DNA of 13,544 nucleotides from Clostridia bacterium. Its GTDB lineage: Bacteria > Bacillota > Clostridia > TANB77 > CAG-465. Below the pieces are notes generated by a model. The model did no database searches. It was not told the DNA's origin and was given only the letters and a program-made list of their open reading frames with translations. Shown here in pieces: positions 1 to 11,472 of the stretch. The stretch's first letter is position 1, and the number at the start of each line of letters is the position of its first letter. The stretch covers positions 1 through 13,544 of the forward strand of contig JAZSNU010000001.1 in NCBI GenBank assembly GCA_045536565.1, written 5' to 3'. The position numbers and the translations under genes were made by a program.

Positions 1-53
1 TGATGCCGAAAATACTTGAGCATAAAAGCTTCGGGAAGATAGGGGGTCGCCAA
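1..53 (+). rRNA. rrf: 5S rRNA, 3' part (truncated by window start)
   Basis: GCCGAAAATACTTG...CGGGAAGATAGG...GTCGCCAA matches the helix V/loop E/helix IV and 3' helix I pattern of clostridial 5S rRNAs. It lies 10 nt before tRNA-Asn, a common rrn-distal arrangement in Firmicutes. Confidence 0.75.
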
Positions 54-63
54 TTTTAAATAT

Positions 64-139
64 TCCTCAATAGCTCAGTCGGTAGAGCGCTCGGCTGTTA
101 ACCGATAGGTCGTTGGTTCGAGTCCAACTTGAGGAGCCA
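64..139 (+). tRNA. tRNA-Asn (anticodon GTT)
   Basis: 76 nt cloverleaf: acceptor stem TCCTCAA/TTGAGGA, D-arm GCTC-AGTCGGTA-GAGC, anticodon loop CTGTTAA (GTT at 97-99), T-arm GTTGG-TTCGAGT-CCAAC, discriminator G and encoded CCA (137-139). Confidence 0.98.
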
Positions 140-141
140 AA
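128..141 (+). repeat. att core copy 1 (attL, within tRNA 3' end)
   Basis: CTTGAGGAGCCAAA, identical to 1306-1319. Confidence 0.9.
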
Positions 142-143
142 AT

Positions 144-170
144 AGCGGGTCGCAAGGCCTGCTTTTTGTT
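144..170 (+). terminator. Intrinsic terminator supplied by the element after tRNA-Asn
   Basis: Stem AGCGGGTC/GGCCTGCT (two G-U pairs), GCAA tetraloop, followed by TTTTGTT. Confidence 0.8.
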
Positions 171-260
171 ATATGTGTAACCCTGAAATGTGTATTTTAA
201 AGCATTTTTGGGTTTTTACAATTTTTTTAAGTTGTACAGAGTATGTATAAAGTTGTTGGC

Positions 261-283
261 ATTGCAGTACTTATTGCAGTACT
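261..283 (+). repeat. Tandem ATTGCAGTACT x2, putative integrase arm-type sites (left arm)
   Basis: ATTGCAGTACT at 261-271 and 273-283 (12-bp period). The same core recurs as a pair at 1216-1233. Confidence 0.7.
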
Positions 284-351
284 TTTTATATAGATAATGC
301 AACAGAAATTAAGGCTGTTACTTTTAATTTTAACAAGAACATAGTATAATA

Positions 352-366
352 CAAATAGTAATTTGA
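352..366 (+). other. Dyad site CAAAT-AGTA-ATTTG(A), putative upstream cassette boundary
   Basis: 5-bp inverted arms around a 4-bp spacer, 11/14 identical to 1088-1101, and immediately after TATAAT (345-350). Confidence 0.4.
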
Positions 367-381
367 CATTCAATTTTCACT

Positions 382-431
382 CTACTAATGGTTGATTACT
401 CCTCATTCAACCATCATTCAACCATTAGTTC
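382..431. promoter_or_regulatory. Putative autoregulatory operators of the XRE gene
   Basis: 12-bp inverted repeat ACTAATGGTTGA (384-395)/TCAACCATTAGT (418-429). Each half has the form C(A/T)AC-N5-GTT(G/C). There is an 11-bp tandem duplication CATTCAACCAT (404-414, 415-425), and TACAAT at 455-460 just downstream. Confidence 0.55.
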
Positions 432-480
432 GTGTTATTTTTCTTAAAATGTACTACAATTAAAGAAAGGGAGGTGTCTT

Positions 481-1089
481 ATGGACCAAATAAAAATAGG
501 AAGGTTTATTGCCGAGTGCAGAAAAAAGAAAAATCTTACACAAGCACAATTGGCAGAAAAATTGAATGTAACCGACAGAGCCATATCAAAATGGGAGACG
601 GGCAAAGCAATGCCTGATTCCAATATTATGCTTGAACTTTGTTATATGCTTGGAATAAATGTAAATGAATTATTATGTGGGGAGATGATTGATATGGAAC
701 AAAAGGATGAACAATTAAATGAACTGGTTTTTCAGATGGCAACAAATGAGGAAAGATATCATAAACGACTACTGCATTCCGCTTATGTGATTGTCTCAAT
801 CAGCGTGATAGCACTTATTTGTCTGATTACTTTAATATCACTCCTTATTCCCGAATGTGGATTTCAAGACTTTTTGATAATAGTGTCTGTTATACTATTT
901 ACAATTCCTTGTATTATTGCTCTTAAATTTAAGGTAGAAACAGGTTATTATGAATGTAAGAACTGTCAACATATGTTTGTTCCTAACTATAAAGAGATTG
1001 CCTTGTTGATGCGAACACCAGCTAGAAGATTGTTGAAGTGTTCTAAATGTGGAAAATGGACTTGGTGCAAAAAACTAACTAAGAGATAA
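481..1089 (+). CDS. XRE-family HTH regulator with two transmembrane helices and C-terminal zinc ribbon
   Basis: N-terminal IGRFIAECRKKKNLTQAQLAEKLNVTDRAISKWETGKAMPD (HTH_3), two hydrophobic segments, and CKNC...CSKC at the C-terminus. RBS GGGAGGT upstream. Confidence 0.93.
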   Translation: MDQIKIGRFIAECRKKKNLTQAQLAEKLNVTDRAISKWETGKAMPDSNIMLELCYMLGINVNELLCGEMIDMEQKDEQLNELVFQMATNEERYHKRLLHSAYVIVSISVIALICLITLISLLIPECGFQDFLIIVSVILFTIPCIIALKFKVETGYYECKNCQHMFVPNYKEIALLMRTPARRLLKCSKCGKWTWCKKLTKR

Positions 1090-1101
1090 ATTACAATTTG
1101 A
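1087..1101 (+). other. Dyad site TAAAT-TACA-ATTTG(A) overlapping XRE stop codon, putative downstream cassette boundary
   Basis: Begins with the TAA stop (1087-1089) and is a degenerate direct repeat of 352-366. Confidence 0.4.
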
Positions 1102-1213
1102 TTTTGATTTAGTAAAGGATAAGTAATAAGGACTAGTAATATATTTGTGATTATCGTAATGTAGTTAGTGCAAATTATGGATATAGTATAATATACGTTA
1201 AATTATTTTGCCG

Positions 1214-1233
1214 TTGCAGTACTACGGCAGTAC
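1214..1233 (+). repeat. TTGCAGTACT-ACG-GCAGTAC, putative integrase arm-type sites (right arm)
   Basis: GCAGTAC at 1216-1222 and 1227-1233 (11-bp period), about 72 bp before the second att core, in the same orientation as the left pair. Confidence 0.7.
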
Positions 1234-1305
1234 AAAAGAAACAGCAAAAACATAAAATATAGTTATATCATGGGCTACAAGGCATATTTTTTAGTACGTG
1301 CATCG

Positions 1306-1319
1306 CTTGAGGAGCCAAA
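1306..1319 (+). repeat. att core copy 2 (attR; displaced tRNA 3' fragment)
   Basis: CTTGAGGAGCCAAA, identical to 128-141. Confidence 0.9.
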
Positions 1320-1322
1320 TAT

Positions 1323-1348
1323 ATCCAGGAGTATTTCCTGGATTTTTT
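1323..1348 (+). terminator. Intrinsic terminator, probably the original rrn/tRNA-Asn terminator
   Basis: Stem ATCCAGGA/TCCTGGAT, loop GTATT, then a T run. It starts 5 nt after the CCA of the duplicated tRNA end. Confidence 0.85.
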
Positions 1349-1411
1349 GCTTTTTATATGGTTTTGTGATATTATGGTAAAATGTTATTATAAATTCTGA
1401 ATATATTTCGA

Positions 1412-1440
1412 TTGAAAAGTTAACATAAATATGATATAAT
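1412..1440 (+). promoter_or_regulatory. SigA-type promoter for GNAT gene
   Basis: TTGAAA (1412-1417), 17 bp, TATAAT (1435-1440) with extended -10 TG. Confidence 0.8.
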
Positions 1441-1488
1441 GATATGGTATTAAATAATAAACAACAAAGGATTAAGGAGTTGAACAAT

Positions 1489-2436
1489 ATGATAAATATT
1501 AAGAAATTTGAAATGGCAAAAGACTATGACAGGGTAATTAAATTTTTAGGTGATAGATATAAAGAAAATAAAAATATGGAATGCTGGTTACCAGCAAGAT
1601 TTGATGATTTAGTTTATCGAATTGATACATTGTATAAAGATGAGAGAGGCTTAAAGGCATCAAAAGACTATATTTATATTTTTCAAGAGAATGATGCAAT
1701 TGTTGGAATAATACTTCCGGATGGAGATTCTTTTAATAGCTCTATTAAAAGAGGATATGAACACATTTTTACACAAATGTTAAATATGGCTGAAAAAGAG
1801 TTATTACCATTATTTAAGCCTGATGAAAATGGAATAGTAAATTTTTTAGTTGTATCTCATGATAGTCTTAATTACCAAGCAGAAGAGCTTCTAAGAAGAG
1901 GATATGTTAGAGATGATGCAGGAGATTATGATAATGTTGCATTACCACAAGAAACTAATTATACTATTGAGTTACCAGTAGGTTTTAAGCAAGTGTTTGG
2001 AGAAAACTATCCAGATATAGTGAAAATGAGAACCTGTCACTATGGATTTCACCCTCAGGATGACGACAACAATTTGTACAAAGAGTATGCAGAGGGTGGG
2101 CTTTCATACCAAGCAAGAAAGAAGTCTCAATTTTATCCAGATAGTTTTGAAAGTTTGATTGTAACTGATGATGGAGATATGTGTGCTTATTCTTTTTGCT
2201 ATGTAGATAAAAATACAAATACGGCATTCATAGAGCCTGTATCTACAAGAGAAAAGTATAGAAAAAGAGGATTGTGTAAGCAAATGCTACATGGAACTAT
2301 AATTAGGCTAAAAGAAATGGGAATAGAAAGAGCATATATAAATTCTTTTGATTGGCGAAAAAAAGTATATAATAGTGCGGGTTTTGAAACAGAAGATTCA
2401 ATTAGTTTTTGGTATAAAAATATTAATACTAAATAA
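1489..2436 (+). CDS. GNAT-family N-acetyltransferase (two-domain length)
   Basis: C-terminal FIEPVSTREKYRKRGLCK (motif A) and KKVYNSAGF (motif B). Start moved from 1444 to ATG 1489 because AAGGAG lies at 1474-1479 and the -10 ends at 1440. Confidence 0.88.
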   Translation: MINIKKFEMAKDYDRVIKFLGDRYKENKNMECWLPARFDDLVYRIDTLYKDERGLKASKDYIYIFQENDAIVGIILPDGDSFNSSIKRGYEHIFTQMLNMAEKELLPLFKPDENGIVNFLVVSHDSLNYQAEELLRRGYVRDDAGDYDNVALPQETNYTIELPVGFKQVFGENYPDIVKMRTCHYGFHPQDDDNNLYKEYAEGGLSYQARKKSQFYPDSFESLIVTDDGDMCAYSFCYVDKNTNTAFIEPVSTREKYRKRGLCKQMLHGTIIRLKEMGIERAYINSFDWRKKVYNSAGFETEDSISFWYKNINTK

Positions 2437-3837: not shown

Positions 3838-4487
3838 TGAAAGATATTTATATTGTTCGTCATGGTGAAAGTCAGGGAAATGCCAGAATGGTAGAGGAAG
3901 GCAACTATGTTATAGATAGTAATATATCTTTAAACAAAACTGGTATAGAGCAAGCAAAACAAGCAGGAAAAATACTAAATGAGCAGATTAATTCTAACTA
4001 TGGTGGTATATTTTGGGTAAGTCCATTTAAAAGAACACGAGAGACATATAAAAATATGCTCGATACTGTAAATGGATATATAAAAAATTACGACTATATT
4101 GAAGACCCGAGACTTGTTGAACAGGATTTTGGTGATTTTGATTTTCAGTTCTATGAAAAGTGGAAAGAGATATCACCGCATTCATACTTCATAAATCAGG
4201 CAAGATATAACGATGAAAGTGGAAGATTTTTTGCAAGACTTGAAAATGGTGAAAATATGCTTGATGTGTATAACAGGGTATCATTATTTGTTAAGACAAG
4301 ACTTGAAACAAGTATTTGGCATAACAATATAATAGTAACACATGGATATGCAAGTATTGCACTTACAATGTTTTTACTTAACTTACCAATTGAACAATTT
4401 TATCATACAGAAACACCACCGAATGGATCAATAAGACACATTGTATATGCAGATGGAATTTATATTGATAAAGGCTTTATAACTTAA
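3834..4487 (+). CDS. Histidine phosphatase superfamily (phosphoglycerate mutase-like, Det1-like)
   Basis: IYIVRHGES catalytic motif, VSPFKRTRET, EDPRLVEQDFG, GENMLDVYNRV and IIVTHG. Confidence 0.92.
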   Translation: MMKDIYIVRHGESQGNARMVEEGNYVIDSNISLNKTGIEQAKQAGKILNEQINSNYGGIFWVSPFKRTRETYKNMLDTVNGYIKNYDYIEDPRLVEQDFGDFDFQFYEKWKEISPHSYFINQARYNDESGRFFARLENGENMLDVYNRVSLFVKTRLETSIWHNNIIVTHGYASIALTMFLLNLPIEQFYHTETPPNGSIRHIVYADGIYIDKGFIT

Positions 4488-4533: not shown

Positions 4534-5934
4534 TTATTTTTGATATAAATGTCTTGCAACATGTACACCACTTGCACTTGCGTGTGACAACGAATGTGTT
4601 ACACCTGAGCCATCACCTATAATGTATAGACCAGGGATTGAAGTTTCAAGATTTCCATTTACCTTAACCTCTGAGTTATAGAACTTAACTTCTACACCAT
4701 AGAGCAGAGTATCTGGATTTGCAGTACCAGGTGCAATTTTATCTAGGGCATATATCATTTCTATGATATCGTCAAGTTGTCTTTTTGGAAGAACTAAACT
4801 TAAATCACCAGGAGTAGCATCAAGAGTAGGTTTTACAAAACCTTTTTCAAGTCTTTTCTTAGTACTTCTTTGTCCTTTTATTAAATCTCCAAATTGTTGA
4901 ACTAAAAGACCTCCACCTAGCATATTTGAAAGCCTTGCAATTGATTCACCATATTCATTACTATTCTCAAAAGGTTCTGTAAAGCGGTTAGAAACAAGTA
5001 AAGCAAAATTTGTGTTTTTTGTTTTTTTACTTCTACAGCTATAACTATGACCATTTGCAGTAATTATACCTCTTGTGTTTTCTGTTACTACCATACCATT
5101 TGGATTCATACAAAATGTTCTAACTAAATCACTGTACTTTTTAGTTTTATATACAAGTTTACTTTCATAAACATCGTCAGTAATATGCTCAAATATTTCT
5201 GCGGGGAGTTCAACCCTTACACCGATATCAACTTTGTTACTAGTTGTTTTTATGCCTAGTTTTGAACACATATCACCAATCCATTTTGAACCAGAACGCC
5301 CAGCAGCGATTACAAGCTTTTTGCATATTTCAGTGTAGTAATAATCATCTATTCCATCATCGCCTGTAATTTGTAATCTAAATTTATTATCTTTTTTAAC
5401 AATATCTGTTACTTCTGAATTAAAGAACATCTTAACACCGTGTTCTTCTAAAAACTGATATATATTTTCAAGTACGGTGTAGTTCACATCAGTTCCTAAA
5501 TGACGAACCCTTGCATCAAGCAAATTTAGTCCATGTTGGAGGGCAAGTTTCTTTATTTTAGAATTTGAGGTGGAATACATTTTTGAAAGGCTTGCACCAA
5601 AGGTACTATTAATTTCGTCAACATATTCCATCAAATCGATTGCTTCTTTTTCTCCAATATGTTCGTAGAGTTTTCCACCGAAATTGTTTGTAATATTGTA
5701 CTTTCCATCTGAAAAAGCACCAGCGCCACCGAAGCCATGCATTATGCTGCAACAGGAACATTTAACACACTTTTTTGCCCTTCCAGTAGTAATAGGACAT
5801 TTTCTGTATTTTAAATAGTTTCCTTTTTCAATAATACAAATTTTAATTTTTGGATTAAGTTTTATTGCTTCAAAAGCAGTAAAAATACCAGCAGGTCCTG
5901 CACCTACTATAATTAAATCATATAAAGTAGCCAT
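4534..5934 (-). CDS. FAD-dependent oxidoreductase (COG2509-type) with N-terminal Cys cluster
   Basis: IIVGAGPAG Rossmann motif, CP...CVKCSCC, GFGGAGAFSDGK, VRTFCMNP, LLYGVEVKFY and ETSIPGLYIIGDG. RBS AAGGAGGT at 5942-5949 (minus strand). Confidence 0.92.
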   Translation of the reverse strand: MATLYDLIIVGAGPAGIFTAFEAIKLNPKIKICIIEKGNYLKYRKCPITTGRAKKCVKCSCCSIMHGFGGAGAFSDGKYNITNNFGGKLYEHIGEKEAIDLMEYVDEINSTFGASLSKMYSTSNSKIKKLALQHGLNLLDARVRHLGTDVNYTVLENIYQFLEEHGVKMFFNSEVTDIVKKDNKFRLQITGDDGIDDYYYTEICKKLVIAAGRSGSKWIGDMCSKLGIKTTSNKVDIGVRVELPAEIFEHITDDVYESKLVYKTKKYSDLVRTFCMNPNGMVVTENTRGIITANGHSYSCRSKKTKNTNFALLVSNRFTEPFENSNEYGESIARLSNMLGGGLLVQQFGDLIKGQRSTKKRLEKGFVKPTLDATPGDLSLVLPKRQLDDIIEMIYALDKIAPGTANPDTLLYGVEVKFYNSEVKVNGNLETSIPGLYIIGDGSGVTHSLSHASASGVHVARHLYQK

Positions 5935-6256: not shown

Positions 6257-7651
6257 ATGGATTTAAAATATGAAAAGAAAAGTGTTTATGAAAAATTAAA
6301 TAAAGTTCAAGAAGAAGCTATGTTTGAATATGCAGATGATTACATTAGCTTTATAAACTACGCAAAAACAGAATATAGATGTGTAGAATATTTTAAAATG
6401 GCATTAGAAGAAGCAGGGTTTAAAGATATAAATAGTGTAGAGGGTGTACTCTCTTGTGGGGATAAAGTATACTTTATAAACAAAGATAGAAGTATTTATG
6501 CTGCAATAATCGGAGAGGATAAAGTATCTTCTGGAATGAATATTATTGGAGCACACATAGATAGTCCAAGACTAGATACAAAACCAATGCCTATGTTTGA
6601 AAGTCAAAATATGGCTATGCTAAAAACACAATATTATGGTGGGGTAAAAAAATATCAATGGCTTGCAATTCCTCTTTCTATGTACGGTATAGTATATAAC
6701 GAAAAAGGTGAAAGAATCGAAATAGTTATTGGAGATAAAAAGGACGATCCATGTTTTACTATAACGGATTTACTTCCACATCTTGCAAAGGGACAAATGG
6801 AGCTCACAGCAGATAAATTTATTGATCCAGAAAATATGGCTGTAATCATTGGCTCAATACCAAGTAAAGATGAAAAAGATAATAAAATAAAGATGAACAT
6901 ATTAAAAATATTAAATAAAAAGTACGGGATTAAAGAAATAGATTTTGCAAGAAGCGATATTCGTTTCGTACCAAGTTTTAAAGCAAAATATGTAGGTTTT
7001 GACAGAGGATTAATTGCAGGATATGGTCAAGATGATAGAGTTTGTTCATATGCTACTGTTAAGGCTATGGTAGATATTGCAAATGAAAACAAGACTTTAA
7101 AGAAAACATGTGTGGCTTTAATTGTGGATAAAGAGGAAATAGGAAGTGTTGGAAATACTTCAATGAGTTCAGAAGCTTTTGAACTTTTTGTTGCAACTAT
7201 GCTTGATAAAGTAGAAGAAAACAGCTGTAACTTAGCATTATATAACGCGATGAATAATTCTAAAATGTTGTCTGCCGATGTTGCAAATGCAGTAGATCCT
7301 ATGTATCAAGAAGTTAGTGACATACAAAATTCTAATATTATAGGATGTGGTGTTGCAATTGAGAAATATACAGGCTCTGGCGGTAAATATTCTGCAAGTG
7401 AGGCTAGTGCAAAATATACAGCATATGTAACTAATTTGTTTGAAAATAATGATATTCCTTATCAAATGGGTACACTTGGTAAAATAGGAAAAGGTGGAGG
7501 AGGAACAATTGCATACATCTTAGCAAATAAAGGTATGGATGTAATAGATTGTGGAACAGCAGTGCTTTCAATGCATTCACCTTATGAACTTACATCAACA
7601 GCTGATGTATATATGACATATAAAGCATATAAAACATTTTACTTAAATTAA
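6257..7651 (+). CDS. apeA: M18-family aminopeptidase (aminopeptidase 1 type)
   Basis: Metal-ligand motifs GAHIDSPRL, GQDDRVC, DKEEIGS, SADV and SMHSPYE. ATG 6257 follows AAAGGTGG (the ORF track starts at 6236). Confidence 0.92.
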   Translation: MDLKYEKKSVYEKLNKVQEEAMFEYADDYISFINYAKTEYRCVEYFKMALEEAGFKDINSVEGVLSCGDKVYFINKDRSIYAAIIGEDKVSSGMNIIGAHIDSPRLDTKPMPMFESQNMAMLKTQYYGGVKKYQWLAIPLSMYGIVYNEKGERIEIVIGDKKDDPCFTITDLLPHLAKGQMELTADKFIDPENMAVIIGSIPSKDEKDNKIKMNILKILNKKYGIKEIDFARSDIRFVPSFKAKYVGFDRGLIAGYGQDDRVCSYATVKAMVDIANENKTLKKTCVALIVDKEEIGSVGNTSMSSEAFELFVATMLDKVEENSCNLALYNAMNNSKMLSADVANAVDPMYQEVSDIQNSNIIGCGVAIEKYTGSGGKYSASEASAKYTAYVTNLFENNDIPYQMGTLGKIGKGGGGTIAYILANKGMDVIDCGTAVLSMHSPYELTSTADVYMTYKAYKTFYLN

Positions 7652-7666
7652 TAAAGGGGAAGGATA

Positions 7667-8779
7667 ATGTTTAAAACATTACTTAAAAATACAGATTTAG
7701 TAATACTTATATCAGTAATCCTCCTAGTTATAATTGGAATAGTAGGAATATATAGTGCAGGATATAACGATAGTGATTTAAAATCGGACTATGTTAAACA
7801 GTTTGTTTGGCTTATAGTATCCTTAGTTGTACTTACTATTGTTTGGCTACTTGATTATAATATGTTTGGAATTTTAAGCATACCATTTTATGTTATATGT
7901 TTAGGATTACTGGTTGCAGTTTTATTTACTGACAAAATATATGGGGCATCGAGTTGGTTTAATGTTGGCCCTATAAGTATTCAGCCATCTGAAATAACAA
8001 AAATAGTATATATATTGCTTTCTGCTAAGTTCATTACATATATAACTTCTAAGGATAAGAAAGCAATAAATAAATGGTATAATATAGCAGCTGTGTTTGG
8101 TATAATGCTTGTGCCAGTTCTATTAATACTTATGCAACCTGACTTTGGTACGGCAGCAGTATTTTTATCGATAACAATATTTATGCTATATAAAGCTGGT
8201 ATAAATTATAAATATATATTAGGTGGAATATTACTTTTGGTAATATTAGTACCTTTGGTATATTTTTTTGTGCTAAATGATATACAAAAAGATAGAATAC
8301 TTGTATTCTTAAACCCTGAACTTGATCCACTAGGAAGTGGATATAATGCTATACAATCTAAAATTGCAGTAGGTGCAGGGCAGATTTTTGGGACAGGCTT
8401 ACTTAAAGGGACACAAACACAATATGGATATCTACCGGTAAAAACATCCGATTTTATATTTTCTGTTATATCTGAGGAATTGGGCTTTATTATTTCAACA
8501 CTTCTTGTTATAATATATACAGTATTATTAATTAGAATTGTAAATATTTCAAAAACTGCTAAGGACATGTATGGCTCTTTGGTTGCTATTGGAATATTTG
8601 GAATGATATTCTTCCATTTCTTAGAAAATGTAGGAATGACAATGGGACTTTTACCTATAACGGGTATACCACTTCCGTTTGTAAGTTATGGTGGTAGTAA
8701 TTTGCTTACAAACTTTATAGCAATAGGTATAGTTCTAAGTATTAGTGCAAGAAGACAAAGAACGCTATTTATAGATTAA
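7667..8779 (+). CDS. rodA: SEDS peptidoglycan polymerase, rod shape-determining protein RodA
   Basis: About 10 TM segments with IQPSEITK, QPDFGTA, DPLGSGYN, TSDFIFSVISEELGF and PITGIPLPFVSYGGS. RBS AAGGGGAAGG. Confidence 0.9.
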   Translation: MFKTLLKNTDLVILISVILLVIIGIVGIYSAGYNDSDLKSDYVKQFVWLIVSLVVLTIVWLLDYNMFGILSIPFYVICLGLLVAVLFTDKIYGASSWFNVGPISIQPSEITKIVYILLSAKFITYITSKDKKAINKWYNIAAVFGIMLVPVLLILMQPDFGTAAVFLSITIFMLYKAGINYKYILGGILLLVILVPLVYFFVLNDIQKDRILVFLNPELDPLGSGYNAIQSKIAVGAGQIFGTGLLKGTQTQYGYLPVKTSDFIFSVISEELGFIISTLLVIIYTVLLIRIVNISKTAKDMYGSLVAIGIFGMIFFHFLENVGMTMGLLPITGIPLPFVSYGGSNLLTNFIAIGIVLSISARRQRTLFID

Positions 8780-10288: not shown

Positions 10289-11020
10289 ATGCTTGTATTA
10301 AATATTAAGAATATATTAAGGAATAAATTAACATTAGTATTGTTTGGATTAATATCTATACTTGTAATACTTACAATAATTGTATATACACTAGCCATGA
10401 AATCAAATATTTTAAGAGGAACTAAAATAGGAGATATTATTGGTAGAATAGGAAGTGATAATAATATAATTAATATGACAAGTTATAGTGCAGAGTTTGA
10501 AATTACGGTAAAAAGTAATAAAAATACAAATACATACACTATGAAGGAATGGTATAAAAAAGGAATTGGAACAAAACAGGAGTATTTGGATAGCAGTAAT
10601 AATAAAGTTACAATACTTACATTAAATAACAAAACTATAATACAAAACGAAAATCAAAAAAATGTTATGGTACTTAATGAATATATAACTAAATATACAA
10701 ATTTACTTAGTATAAATACCTTTATAGACATATACCAAAAATATAAAGAAAAAGATTGTTGTTTTGATGCAAATAGTTATGAAAAAGTAAATAATATATA
10801 CATGATATTAGACAATAGTTGTAAAATGGGAGAAAATTGTAATTGTGATGTAAGTGAAATAGTTAAAAATGTTAGTAAAATAGAATTAAAAGTAGATAAA
10901 AATACAGGAAAACCTATTACATATATAGTATATGACAATGACAAAAAGGAGTGTATAAGCATAGTATATAACAAGTTTGATATTAATGCAGAAATAAAAG
11001 AGAAAGAGTTTAAGGAATAA
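10289..11020 (+). CDS. GerS/YdcC-like (LolA-fold) membrane-anchored sporulation/germination protein
   Basis: N-terminal TM helix, then SYSAEFEITVKSNKNTNTYTMKEWYK and C-terminal KIELKVDKNTGKPITYIVYD...IVYNKF, which resemble GerS-type proteins. Its position before mazF matches the ydcC/gerS-alr-mazE-mazF locus. Confidence 0.6.
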   Translation: MLVLNIKNILRNKLTLVLFGLISILVILTIIVYTLAMKSNILRGTKIGDIIGRIGSDNNIINMTSYSAEFEITVKSNKNTNTYTMKEWYKKGIGTKQEYLDSSNNKVTILTLNNKTIIQNENQKNVMVLNEYITKYTNLLSINTFIDIYQKYKEKDCCFDANSYEKVNNIYMILDNSCKMGENCNCDVSEIVKNVSKIELKVDKNTGKPITYIVYDNDKKECISIVYNKFDINAEIKEKEFKE

Positions 11021-11085: not shown

Positions 11086-11472
11086 ATGAAAGTAAAAAGA
11101 GGAGATATATATTATGCTGATTTAAGTCCGGTAATAGGTAGTGAACAAGCAGGAGTAAGACCAATACTTGTTGTACAAAATGATATAGGTAATAAATTTA
11201 GTCCTACAATAATAGGGATAGCAATAACATCAAAACAAAAGGCTAAACTACCTACACATATAGAAATAGAGGGAACAAAATATGGGCTTGATAAAGATTC
11301 AGTTATATTAGCAGAGCAAATTAGAACACTAGATAAAAGAAGACTTAAAGAAAAGGTAGGAAGATTAGATAAAGAAACTATGGAGAAAGTAAAGAGGGCA
11401 ATAGAGATAAGCTTTGGGATAAGAGGAGAGCTAAATCTTGAAGAGATGTATTTAAGAGGATTGTTTGAGTGA
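11086..11472 (+). CDS. mazF: MazF/PemK-family endoribonuclease (EndoA type)
   Basis: [45 protein letters not shown] and [17 protein letters not shown] closely follow B. subtilis NdoA. Catalytic Arg (GVRP) and Thr (AITS) are retained. Confidence 0.96.

Follow-up and report, generated by a model that had tools for sequence, protein, structure and literature searches.

A probable CIME-type integrative element of 1.2 kb behind a tRNA-Asn gene of an uncultured Clostridia bacterium, and relatives with the same arms around other cargo

Introduction

The closest described counterparts of the locus treated here are the cis-mobilizable elements (CIMEs) of streptococci. As portrayed in two papers, CIMEs are integrated elements that keep attL and attR, lack integration and transfer genes and carry adaptive cargo, with examples derived from elements of the ICESt1/ICESt3 type and others at the tRNA-Lys(CTT) locus of Streptococcus agalactiae, where 215 are reported; the 'classical' ones measure 1.2-13 kb (PMC5704250, PMC7563491). 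They are reported to be very common and often to form tandem arrays by site-specific accretion at the 3' ends of target genes, tRNA genes included, and the streptococcal ones are described as decay products of integrative and conjugative or integrative and mobilizable elements (ICEs and IMEs), moved by conjugation together with a neighbour (PMC5704250, PMC7563491). The survey of S. salivarius adds that single CIMEs escaped its own method (PMC7563491). Here we describe a 1,178-bp insertion behind a tRNA-Asn gene in an uncultured Clostridia bacterium (GenBank assembly GCA_045536565.1). It lies in a stretch of 13,544 bp, referred to below as the window, which is the start of contig C7 (JAZSNU010000001.1) of a 1.13-Mb genome in 22 contigs. 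The insertion is well bounded, has both arms essentially intact and belongs to a family with interchangeable cargo, and it is probably a non-autonomous integrative element of the CIME type.

The locus resembles CIMEs in that attL and attR are kept, no recombinase is present and tandem stacking occurs at a tRNA 3' end, although the window element itself stands alone and it is the relatives that stack with other integrase-less elements. Its 14-bp cores are exact and its arms are homologous to those of six other bounded elements; its sole open reading frame (ORF) encodes a helix-turn-helix (HTH) protein, and positions 1-1500 hold no integrase similarity at E <2. Unlike the streptococcal case, no conjugation gene or parent element was seen at the tRNA-Asn site, and every member found there lacks an integrase. 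The arms here are uniform in length and match phage-type integrases, many of them on viral contigs of the IMG/VR collection, what looks like a portable promoter module is aboard, and the hosts are uncultured Clostridia with genomes of ~1.1-1.4 Mb. Because the arms point to phage-type elements and not to conjugation genes, descent from an ICE or IME is no more than possible.

Lambda-type attachment sites (those of lambda Int and Tn916/Tn1549 Int) share with this locus a short core over a tRNA 3' end, flanked on either side by a long arm that holds tandem direct repeats about one helical turn apart, and integrases, here of ~380-400 aa, with an extra N-terminal domain. In contrast to those systems, the element contains no integrase or excisionase gene, and its arm-type sites are putative. 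Integron cassettes, which are serviced in trans by a tyrosine recombinase, are likewise single-gene or promoter-poor units without a recombinase of their own that form arrays at one site. However, the tRNA-Asn locus lacks both a folded single-strand site of the attC type and a neighbouring intI/attI platform, the element brings its own promoter, and the junctions are ~260-bp double-arm att sites with a tRNA core; none of the three PF00589 matches of the host reaches the NCBIfam integron-integrase cut-off.

An earlier note on this DNA had likened the element to a MITE (miniature inverted-repeat transposable element). The likeness holds insofar as both are short non-autonomous derivatives whose enzyme is encoded elsewhere and which outnumber autonomous parents. 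It is nevertheless loose, because inverted terminal repeats are lacking: an inverted-repeat scan gave no terminal pair joining 142-300 with 1150-1305. There is also no transposase-made target-site duplication, the flanking repeat being a tRNA core from conservative site-specific recombination, and the published category that fits is the CIME. With one gene only, that of an HTH regulator, the element does not resemble a phage satellite (phage-inducible chromosomal island, PICI, or P4-like) either.

Insertion at the tRNA-Asn gene

The insertion, positions 142-1319 of the window, separates tRNA-Asn(GTT) (64-139), the single tRNA gene that ARAGORN finds in the window, from the terminator native to that gene (1323-1343); the features are collected in Table 1. 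The earlier note had claimed an exact 14-bp duplication at 128-141 and 1306-1319, arising from an insertion at the tRNA 3' end without a recombinase, and this account is borne out. The 14-mer CTTGAGGAGCCAAA, which comprises the last 12 bases of the tRNA and two more, occurs exactly twice in the 13,544 bp, and none of 200 dinucleotide shuffles reached two or more matches to it at up to two mismatches. The direct repeat is formed by the 3' end of a tRNA that was restored, since the window tRNA-Asn is identical to a copy on contig C6 of the same genome. The element may be bounded as 142-1319 or, equally, as 128-1305. One intrinsic terminator lies at its left end (144-163 plus a T run) and another just past the second repeat (1323-1343 plus a T run), and this placement, one behind the tRNA and one behind the second repeat, fits an insertion between the tRNA and its terminator.

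An autonomous tRNA-targeting element of the tyrosine-integrase kind would carry its own integrase beside an att arm, and none is found here. Six tyrosine integrases compared by tblastn with window 1-1500 revealed no remnant (best E 2.2). A serine-recombinase ORF gave two tblastn matches in the same interval, which are an artefact because the query ORF extends into a tRNA. The note had claimed a single cargo gene, and the element indeed holds just one substantial ORF, at 481-1089. An Rfam scan of 1-1500 (E <=1) found no RNA family in the arms, only the tRNA and a sub-threshold tRNA match on the opposite strand.

Empty sites and foreign origin

The first 141 bases of contig C6 are identical to window 1-141; directly behind the tRNA follows a terminator 92% identical to window 1306-1355, and then unrelated genes. 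The genome therefore carries two tRNA-Asn loci, of which one is occupied and the other is not. An empty site as predicted in the earlier note (GAGGAGCCAAATATATCCAGGA directly on the tRNA) thus exists as a paralogue, with a letter-for-letter junction. It also exists as an orthologue in the sister genus, g5, where the locus is empty in G026:C4 and filled in G017:C6 and G020:C63, with the same downstream gene in all three.

The two terminators differ in provenance. Eight empty tRNA-Asn sites of g5 match the window at 88-94% from position 2, 32 or 39 through position 170, so that the terminator at the left end of the element is of g5 type. The host genus has a terminator of a different type, found on C6, at window 1323-1343 and in G003. 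This difference argues that the element came from a g5-like background; host site and element share only the 14-bp core. In our reading of the alignment, the stems of the left-arm terminators vary by paired changes. The element was not found in five genomes of the host's genus, searched with the element and with each arm, and in the genomes of that genus other than G003 the synteny around the site is not kept within the stretches compared.

Housekeeping genes of the two genera are 67-70% identical and the arms 58-77% identical to their relatives. Since the arms are no more alike than the housekeeping genes, arrival was old and not recent. Arm identity was tried as a transfer clock and dropped, the two ranges giving no signal, and the case for foreign origin therefore rests on terminator type. 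When window 100-480 was compared with phage and plasmid collections by blastn, matches were confined to its tRNA part (query 1-45).

The position of strand exchange is narrowed by one relative, G100:C5. Its host tRNA is a compensatory acceptor-stem variant, and its attL and attR share only AGGAGCCAAA, 10 bp, which, absent later mutation, places the exchange within window 132-141.

Structure of the arms

From left to right the element consists of the core, a replacement terminator, a spacer, a pair of TGCAGTAC 8-mers 12 bp apart, the cargo gene, a pair of 8-mers 11 bp apart, ~75 nt and the second core. The matched repeat pairs that had been noticed near both ends are present: three exact copies of TTGCAGTACT lie at 262, 274 and 1214 and a variant with one base changed, GGCAGTAC, at 1226, and ATAGTATAATA occurs at 341 and 1183. 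The left pair lies ~120 nt to the right of its core and the right pair ~72-75 nt to the left of the next. At one mismatch or fewer TTGCAGTAC has 9 matches against 2.7 expected, a count reached by 1 of 200 shuffles; an exact copy at 4719, beyond the element, is probably a chance match.

Measured from the core to the end of the second 8-mer, left arms are 135-144 nt long, and 8 of 12 are 141 nt; their identity to the window arm is 62-77%, and that of right arms 58-72%. The left pair with its 12-bp spacing recurs in six other left arms and in integrase loci of IMG/VR, and the 11-bp spacing is common to the right arms of five other elements and to the integrase-proximal pairs in IMG/VR loci. The 8-mers fall into three classes (TGCAGTAC, TGCATTAC and TACTGTAC-like). 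In all seven elements that have both arms, left and right belong to one class (in one of them, L077, only one right-hand copy is clear), and neighbours in a stack differ. This combination of fixed length, phasing and co-variation within an element suggests that the 8-mers are protein-binding sites under selection. We infer that they would serve as arm-type sites for the extra N-terminal domain of an integrase, or for an excisionase.

Relatives with other cargo

Relatives were sought in 79 genomes of the family and 401 of the order, in species-representative and metagenome collections, and in a viral collection, the last with two arm patterns and one integrase profile. The earlier note had proposed comparing the arms with related genomes, and this comparison found the same arms around nine other cargo sets at tRNA-Asn, single or in tandem, in the sister genus and on four short public contigs. 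The left end used as query matched 10 of 13 g5 genomes, mostly through its terminator part.

Six of the relatives are fully bounded and the others are partial. The bounded ones are G017:C6 (L032, 1.07 kb, one lipoprotein-like gene); G017:C4 (L033, 2.09 kb, three small membrane or zinc-ribbon genes, followed by a lone left arm); the inner unit, E4b, of G035:C29 (L036, 1.7 kb, two genes); G100:C5 (L042, 2.8 kb, a Dam-type methyltransferase and a DUF6996/6997/7226 protein); G020:C63 (L041, 1.15 kb, an Ltp-type lipoprotein); and the metagenome contig L077 (1.9 kb, a GH10-family enzyme). The partial ones are the outer unit of G035:C29 (L036), which is cut by the contig end and carries an FtsX-type permease, a response regulator and a histidine kinase; G023:C9 (L037), with a left arm only and an APH-like kinase among other genes; and the short contigs L074 (5.2 kb, GNAT cargo), L076 (ABC ATPase cargo) and L078 (a stack junction). 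Among the cargo are an ABC/two-component module, a restriction-modification pair, an Ltp lipoprotein, a GNAT protein and a GH10 enzyme, and none of 21 cargo ORFs matches a recombinase family. Tandem stacks occur in G035:C29, L078 and G017:C4, and each junction has an intact core. Decayed relatives with one arm also exist (G023:C9, L074 and the remnant in G017:C4).

The contig L074 is filed in a metagenome-assembled genome named 'Candidatus Nanosyncoccus sp.'. It holds tRNA-Ala, a frame-poor stretch taken as rRNA, tRNA-Asn and the mini element, followed by a sugar-transferase gene as in g5 genomes, and its placement is probably a binning error.

Association with tyrosine integrases

The exact pair TGCAGTAC-N3-4-TGCAGTAC is present in 12 of the 401 order genomes, against none for the reversed control. 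In three genomes the TGCAGTAC pair adjoins PF00589 integrases of 382-393 aa, two of them beside tRNA-Pro and tRNA-Leu, and in G021 a stretch 76.5% identical to window 180-275 adjoins a truncated integrase at tRNA-Pro. The match in G092 is not an arm, because it sits within a TraG/VirD4-like gene. Identity among the four full-length integrases is 29-42%, and all four have a conserved N-terminal segment of ~60 aa ahead of the core-binding and catalytic domains; the catalytic R, H-x-x-R, H and Y are kept in all five aligned integrases, the truncated one included. The closest solved chains are 6emy, 6en0 and 6emz (E ~6e-33), titled 'Int protein', which we take to be Tn1549 Int.

A profile search of IMG/VR returned 398 relatives of this integrase family, and the best 80 were examined for their arms. 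Among these 80 loci, TGCAGTAC pairs follow int in 22, and at least 14 show, in order, an 11-spaced pair, a core resembling a tRNA 3' end, a terminator and a 12-spaced pair. One IMG/VR locus, L130, has an integrase-less mini element of 2.1 kb in tandem behind an integrase-bearing one. The arm layout, together with the 8-mer pairs beside integrases, argues that the arms in the window are att arms of a phage-type tyrosine integrase family; judged by its DNA, the element carries repeats matching that family on both arms.

In three IMG/VR loci (L131, L134 and L130, at ~3900-4400), one, two or three tandem units of ~160 nt lie between the right-arm and left-arm pairs. These units may be micro-elements or repeats of tRNA fragments at the junction.

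Proposed mechanism

We propose that the element descends from a circle whose attP would have consisted of the right arm, the 14-bp tRNA-Asn 3' end and the left arm. A tyrosine integrase of the lambda/Tn916 type, supplied from elsewhere, would have recombined this circle into one of the two host tRNA-Asn genes, with strand exchange presumably within AGGAGCCAAA (132-141). Integration would have rebuilt the tRNA, supplied the element-borne terminator and moved the native one 1.18 kb downstream. The element should be unable to move alone and would need Int, and probably Xis, in trans. Alternatively, it might ride in cis after an integrase-bearing relative has integrated alongside, the pair being excised together. 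The identity of the enzyme, the binding of protein to the 8-mers, the position of the crossover and any present mobility are all what we infer from the arrangement of the DNA.

A number of observations weigh against this interpretation. The earlier note had expected larger relatives with a tyrosine integrase at tRNA-Asn, and none turned up in the family, order, species-representative, metagenome or viral scans. In the 79 family genomes no integrase-bearing element with these arms was found at that site. The exact left-arm pattern found three loci in the species-representative collection, all integrase-less and two of them the G017 elements; the metagenome scan gave three short contigs, again all integrase-less; and the viral collection had no match to the left- or right-arm pattern with a tRNA-Asn core. 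The host has only XerD-like and XerC-like recombinases plus an integrase with in-frame stops, and G100 carries an element yet no intact integrase beyond two Xer-type genes. The N-terminal domain of the associated integrases has no Pfam match, so that its arm-binding role is deduced from architecture. The second site of the right arm has decayed by one change from consensus, and a large-serine-recombinase element in G003 uses the same tRNA-Asn site. The element is also old, its arms being only 58-77% identical to relatives, with no near-identical copy elsewhere. Finally, every genome used is a metagenome assembly, and the locus lies against a repeat where its contig begins.

Two helper candidates were set aside. 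The XerC/D-like genes are an ordinary conserved pair in all these genomes; XerC and XerD act at dif, not at tRNA genes. The other candidate is a 381-aa integrase on G017:C12, the only one of the right family in that genome, which is not convincing as it lies mid-island at a tRNA-Gly with a different core. The island in question (G017:C12:74291-93074, L034 and L066) is 18.8 kb long, lies behind tRNA-Gly(TCC), is bounded by a 14-bp repeat and has TTTACTGCA pairs in both arms. The TTTACTGCA repeat coincides in part with the arm sites of the tRNA-Asn mini elements of that genome, namely over TACTGCAGT, and the island's integrase may be able to bind the mini-element arms. The broken integrase gene of the host (genome G000, contig C10, ~6720-8150, L011) lies beside tRNA-Met(CAT) and is probably the remnant of another integrative element.

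With no helper visible in the host, the element is probably stranded there, and that it is still mobilizable is possible though rather doubtful. On the whole, the interpretation offered by the earlier note is partly supported.

Alternative explanations

The alternative that survives best grants the same origin but holds that the element is now an eroded remnant, fixed in the lineage and unable to recombine even with a helper. We give it an even chance; it concerns present activity only and does not conflict with the identity of the element. It accords with the lack of a helper integrase in the host, the altered right-arm site, the identity of only 58-77% to any relative and the existence of decayed one-armed relatives (G023:C9, L074 and the G017:C4 remnant). 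Public (Logan) contigs likewise show no joint from 141 to 1320 or from 1305 to 142, although such contigs drop rare forms and so cannot show them, and no run contained more than 0.27 of the sampled words; in run X1 a 432-nt contig covers 1091-1522, across attR. Against erosion stand the two exact cores, a left arm that has the length common to most relatives and both its 8-mers intact, and the consensus sequence at three of the four arm sites. Moreover, in seven bounded elements elsewhere the arm classes still match, as would be expected if selection on the arms continues.

It is improbable that the locus is instead a highly variable chromosomal spot where homologous recombination exchanges the contents, the arms being homology flanks and the cores relics. 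Arms and carrier (142-365 and 1088-1305) common to elements with different cargo would indeed allow cargo to be replaced in this way, and no integrase was found for the tRNA-Asn site. However, the site in the host genus shares only 14 bp with the element, and the tRNA in G100 only 10 bp; exact cores mark every stack junction, the 8-mers agree inside an element but not across neighbours in a stack, and the same arm layout is found next to integrases at other tRNAs. Elements may well exchange cargo by homologous recombination, yet such recombination leaves the insertions unexplained.

More improbable still is an insertion made by a large serine recombinase rather than a tyrosine integrase. Such an enzyme has used the orthologous site in G003, of the same genus as the host, where a different element of 4.36 kb (G003:C46:7500-12138, L087) is flanked by a 16-bp repeat that includes the core and encodes a protein with Resolvase and Recombinase domains in two ORFs. 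This occupation argues that the site is a hotspot for more than one class of recombinase. Yet the arms of the G003 element are unrelated to those of the window, only the core and the native terminator being matched, and the window arms are homologous to arms beside tyrosine integrases. Serine recombinases, in addition, use short att sites without arm repeats. The G003 element further carries, besides the large serine recombinase split in two ORFs, ParE with a small upstream ORF, a 197-aa protein and RepA_N. 

That there was no insertion, the second 14-mer being a chance match or local duplication and 142-1305 ordinary intergenic DNA with a resident gene, has a negligible chance of being right: only the shortness of the repeat speaks for it, and it conflicts with the absence of two copies in all 200 shuffles, with the empty paralogue on C6 that joins the tRNA directly to the native terminator, and with the homologous bounded elements elsewhere.

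Cargo gene, carrier segments and neighbouring features

The cargo gene encodes a 202-aa protein with an N-terminal HTH domain of the XRE family; as we read the sequence, it also has two hydrophobic stretches and four cysteines in its C-terminus. The gene product is predicted to be a membrane-anchored XRE regulator. Full-length homologues at 42-55% identity occur in seven related genomes, and the six that were checked lie away from tRNAs and 8-mer pairs; Atlas clusters group the protein with HTH_3 proteins of ~200 aa from Bacillota. A perfect inverted repeat in the leader of the gene may serve the HTH protein as an operator or may work as an attenuator.

The segments between arms and cargo are shared more widely. 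Window 142-365 and 1088-1305 are common to the element with the ABC/two-component cargo, so the carrier is conserved around unrelated cargo. On the right-hand side, G035:C29 3171-3380, directly after the histidine-kinase gene, is 82% identical to window 1111-1319, and L078 is 78% identical to window 1088-1319. The second ATAGTATAATA box, in the right-hand segment, faces attR, and in a circle it would read across the junction into the left arm.

Upstream of the cargo gene lies a module of ~78 nt that combines a GTAACAG-N9-CTGTTAC inverted repeat, a T-rich run, a TATAAT box and a ribosome-binding site. Copies 84-88% identical to it stand upstream of unrelated small genes at five loci of g5 genomes (L034:5772-5847, L035:5858-5934, L038:5943-6020, L039:5929-6009 and L040:5734-5811) and also in L076. 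The first arm of the inverted repeat is degenerate in the window copy, whose hairpin is weak (z 0.15). The module looks like a portable terminator-promoter unit with several copies per genome.

In contigs from animal-gut sequencing runs, sequences at least 88% like the cargo (500-1100) reach summed depths of ~35-660 in the three runs with real cover, whereas the arms and the right flank (200-300 and 1100-1500) have 0-42; the loose ends begin at the start codon. Because cargo depth exceeds arm depth, the cargo gene is seemingly also present in other, more abundant organisms or contexts. Further along the window, 11086-11472 holds a gene for a PemK/MazF-type toxin (E 1.3e-37), and the 243-aa ORF ahead of it (10289-11020) has no Pfam match.

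Table 1. Features of the element and its insertion site, in window coordinates
Feature	Position	Strand	Remarks
tRNA-Asn(GTT), intact target	64..139	+	ARAGORN; Rfam RF00005, 70.3 bits; C6:1-141 100% identical
attL core CTTGAGGAGCCAAA, tRNA 3' end + 2 nt, 14 bp	128..141	+	exact repeat
Left arm, P'-type, 142 nt	142..283	+	ends just past second 8-mer; homologous arms at 11 other loci
Element-borne replacement intrinsic terminator for the tRNA	144..168	+	-13.9 kcal/mol, z -3.7; g5 type
Putative left arm-type sites, TTGCAGTACT twice, 12 bp start to start	262..283	+	sequence repeat
Apparent terminator/promoter module upstream of cargo	288..365	+	GTAACAG-type inverted repeat, T-rich run, TATAAT box
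Perfect 12-bp inverted repeat, cargo 5' leader	384..429 (384-395 / 418-429)	+	-14.5 kcal/mol, z -6.1
Cargo gene, 202-aa XRE-HTH protein	481..1089	+	PF01381, E 1.9e-13, N-terminal
Right-hand carrier segment	1090..1200	+	common to element with different cargo; second ATAGTATAATA box 1183-1193
Right arm, P-type	1201..1305	+	conserved block ~30-50 nt ahead of core; alignment of 7 right arms
Putative right arm-type sites, TTGCAGTAC + GGCAGTAC, 11 bp apart	1214..1233	+	second one change off consensus
attR core, second CTTGAGGAGCCAAA copy; non-tRNA sequence precedes	1306..1319	+	exact repeat
Host's native tRNA-Asn terminator, displaced	1323..1349	+	92% identical to C6; also behind core in G003

Implications

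The concept of an integrase-less element between intact attachment sites is already established, and the gain here is one of scope and detail in an unstudied lineage. Non-autonomous integrative elements escape island finders that take integrase genes as their starting point. The present locus is a clean minimal example, and its family has sharply defined arms, three classes of arm sites and tandem stacks; with arms so sharply defined, such elements can be traced in metagenomes by their arms alone. The co-varying 8-mers, together with integrases that have the same 8-mers beside them, offer a direct route to studying arm-site specificity.

A broader reading, which we consider speculative and rather unlikely, is that the tRNA-Asn elements form a self-sustaining class of integrase-less cassettes in small-genome gut Clostridia and are not random decay products. 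A standard carrier (terminator, arm of fixed length, portable promoter and right arm) would be slotted with defence, resistance, surface or regulatory cargo, stacked behind both tRNA-Asn genes, and moved between genera in trans by integrases of temperate-phage type with matching arm-site classes. If true, the cassettes would form an economy like that of integrons, but based on double-stranded att sites of the lambda type, and the parasites in it would outnumber and outlive their helpers.

For the organisms themselves, the family indicates how uncultured gut Clostridia with very small genomes can acquire accessory genes and stack them at a tRNA gene while retaining no recombination machinery. 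Such genes include a restriction-modification pair, an Ltp-type exclusion lipoprotein, an ABC/two-component module resembling those for peptide resistance, a xylanase-family enzyme and regulators.

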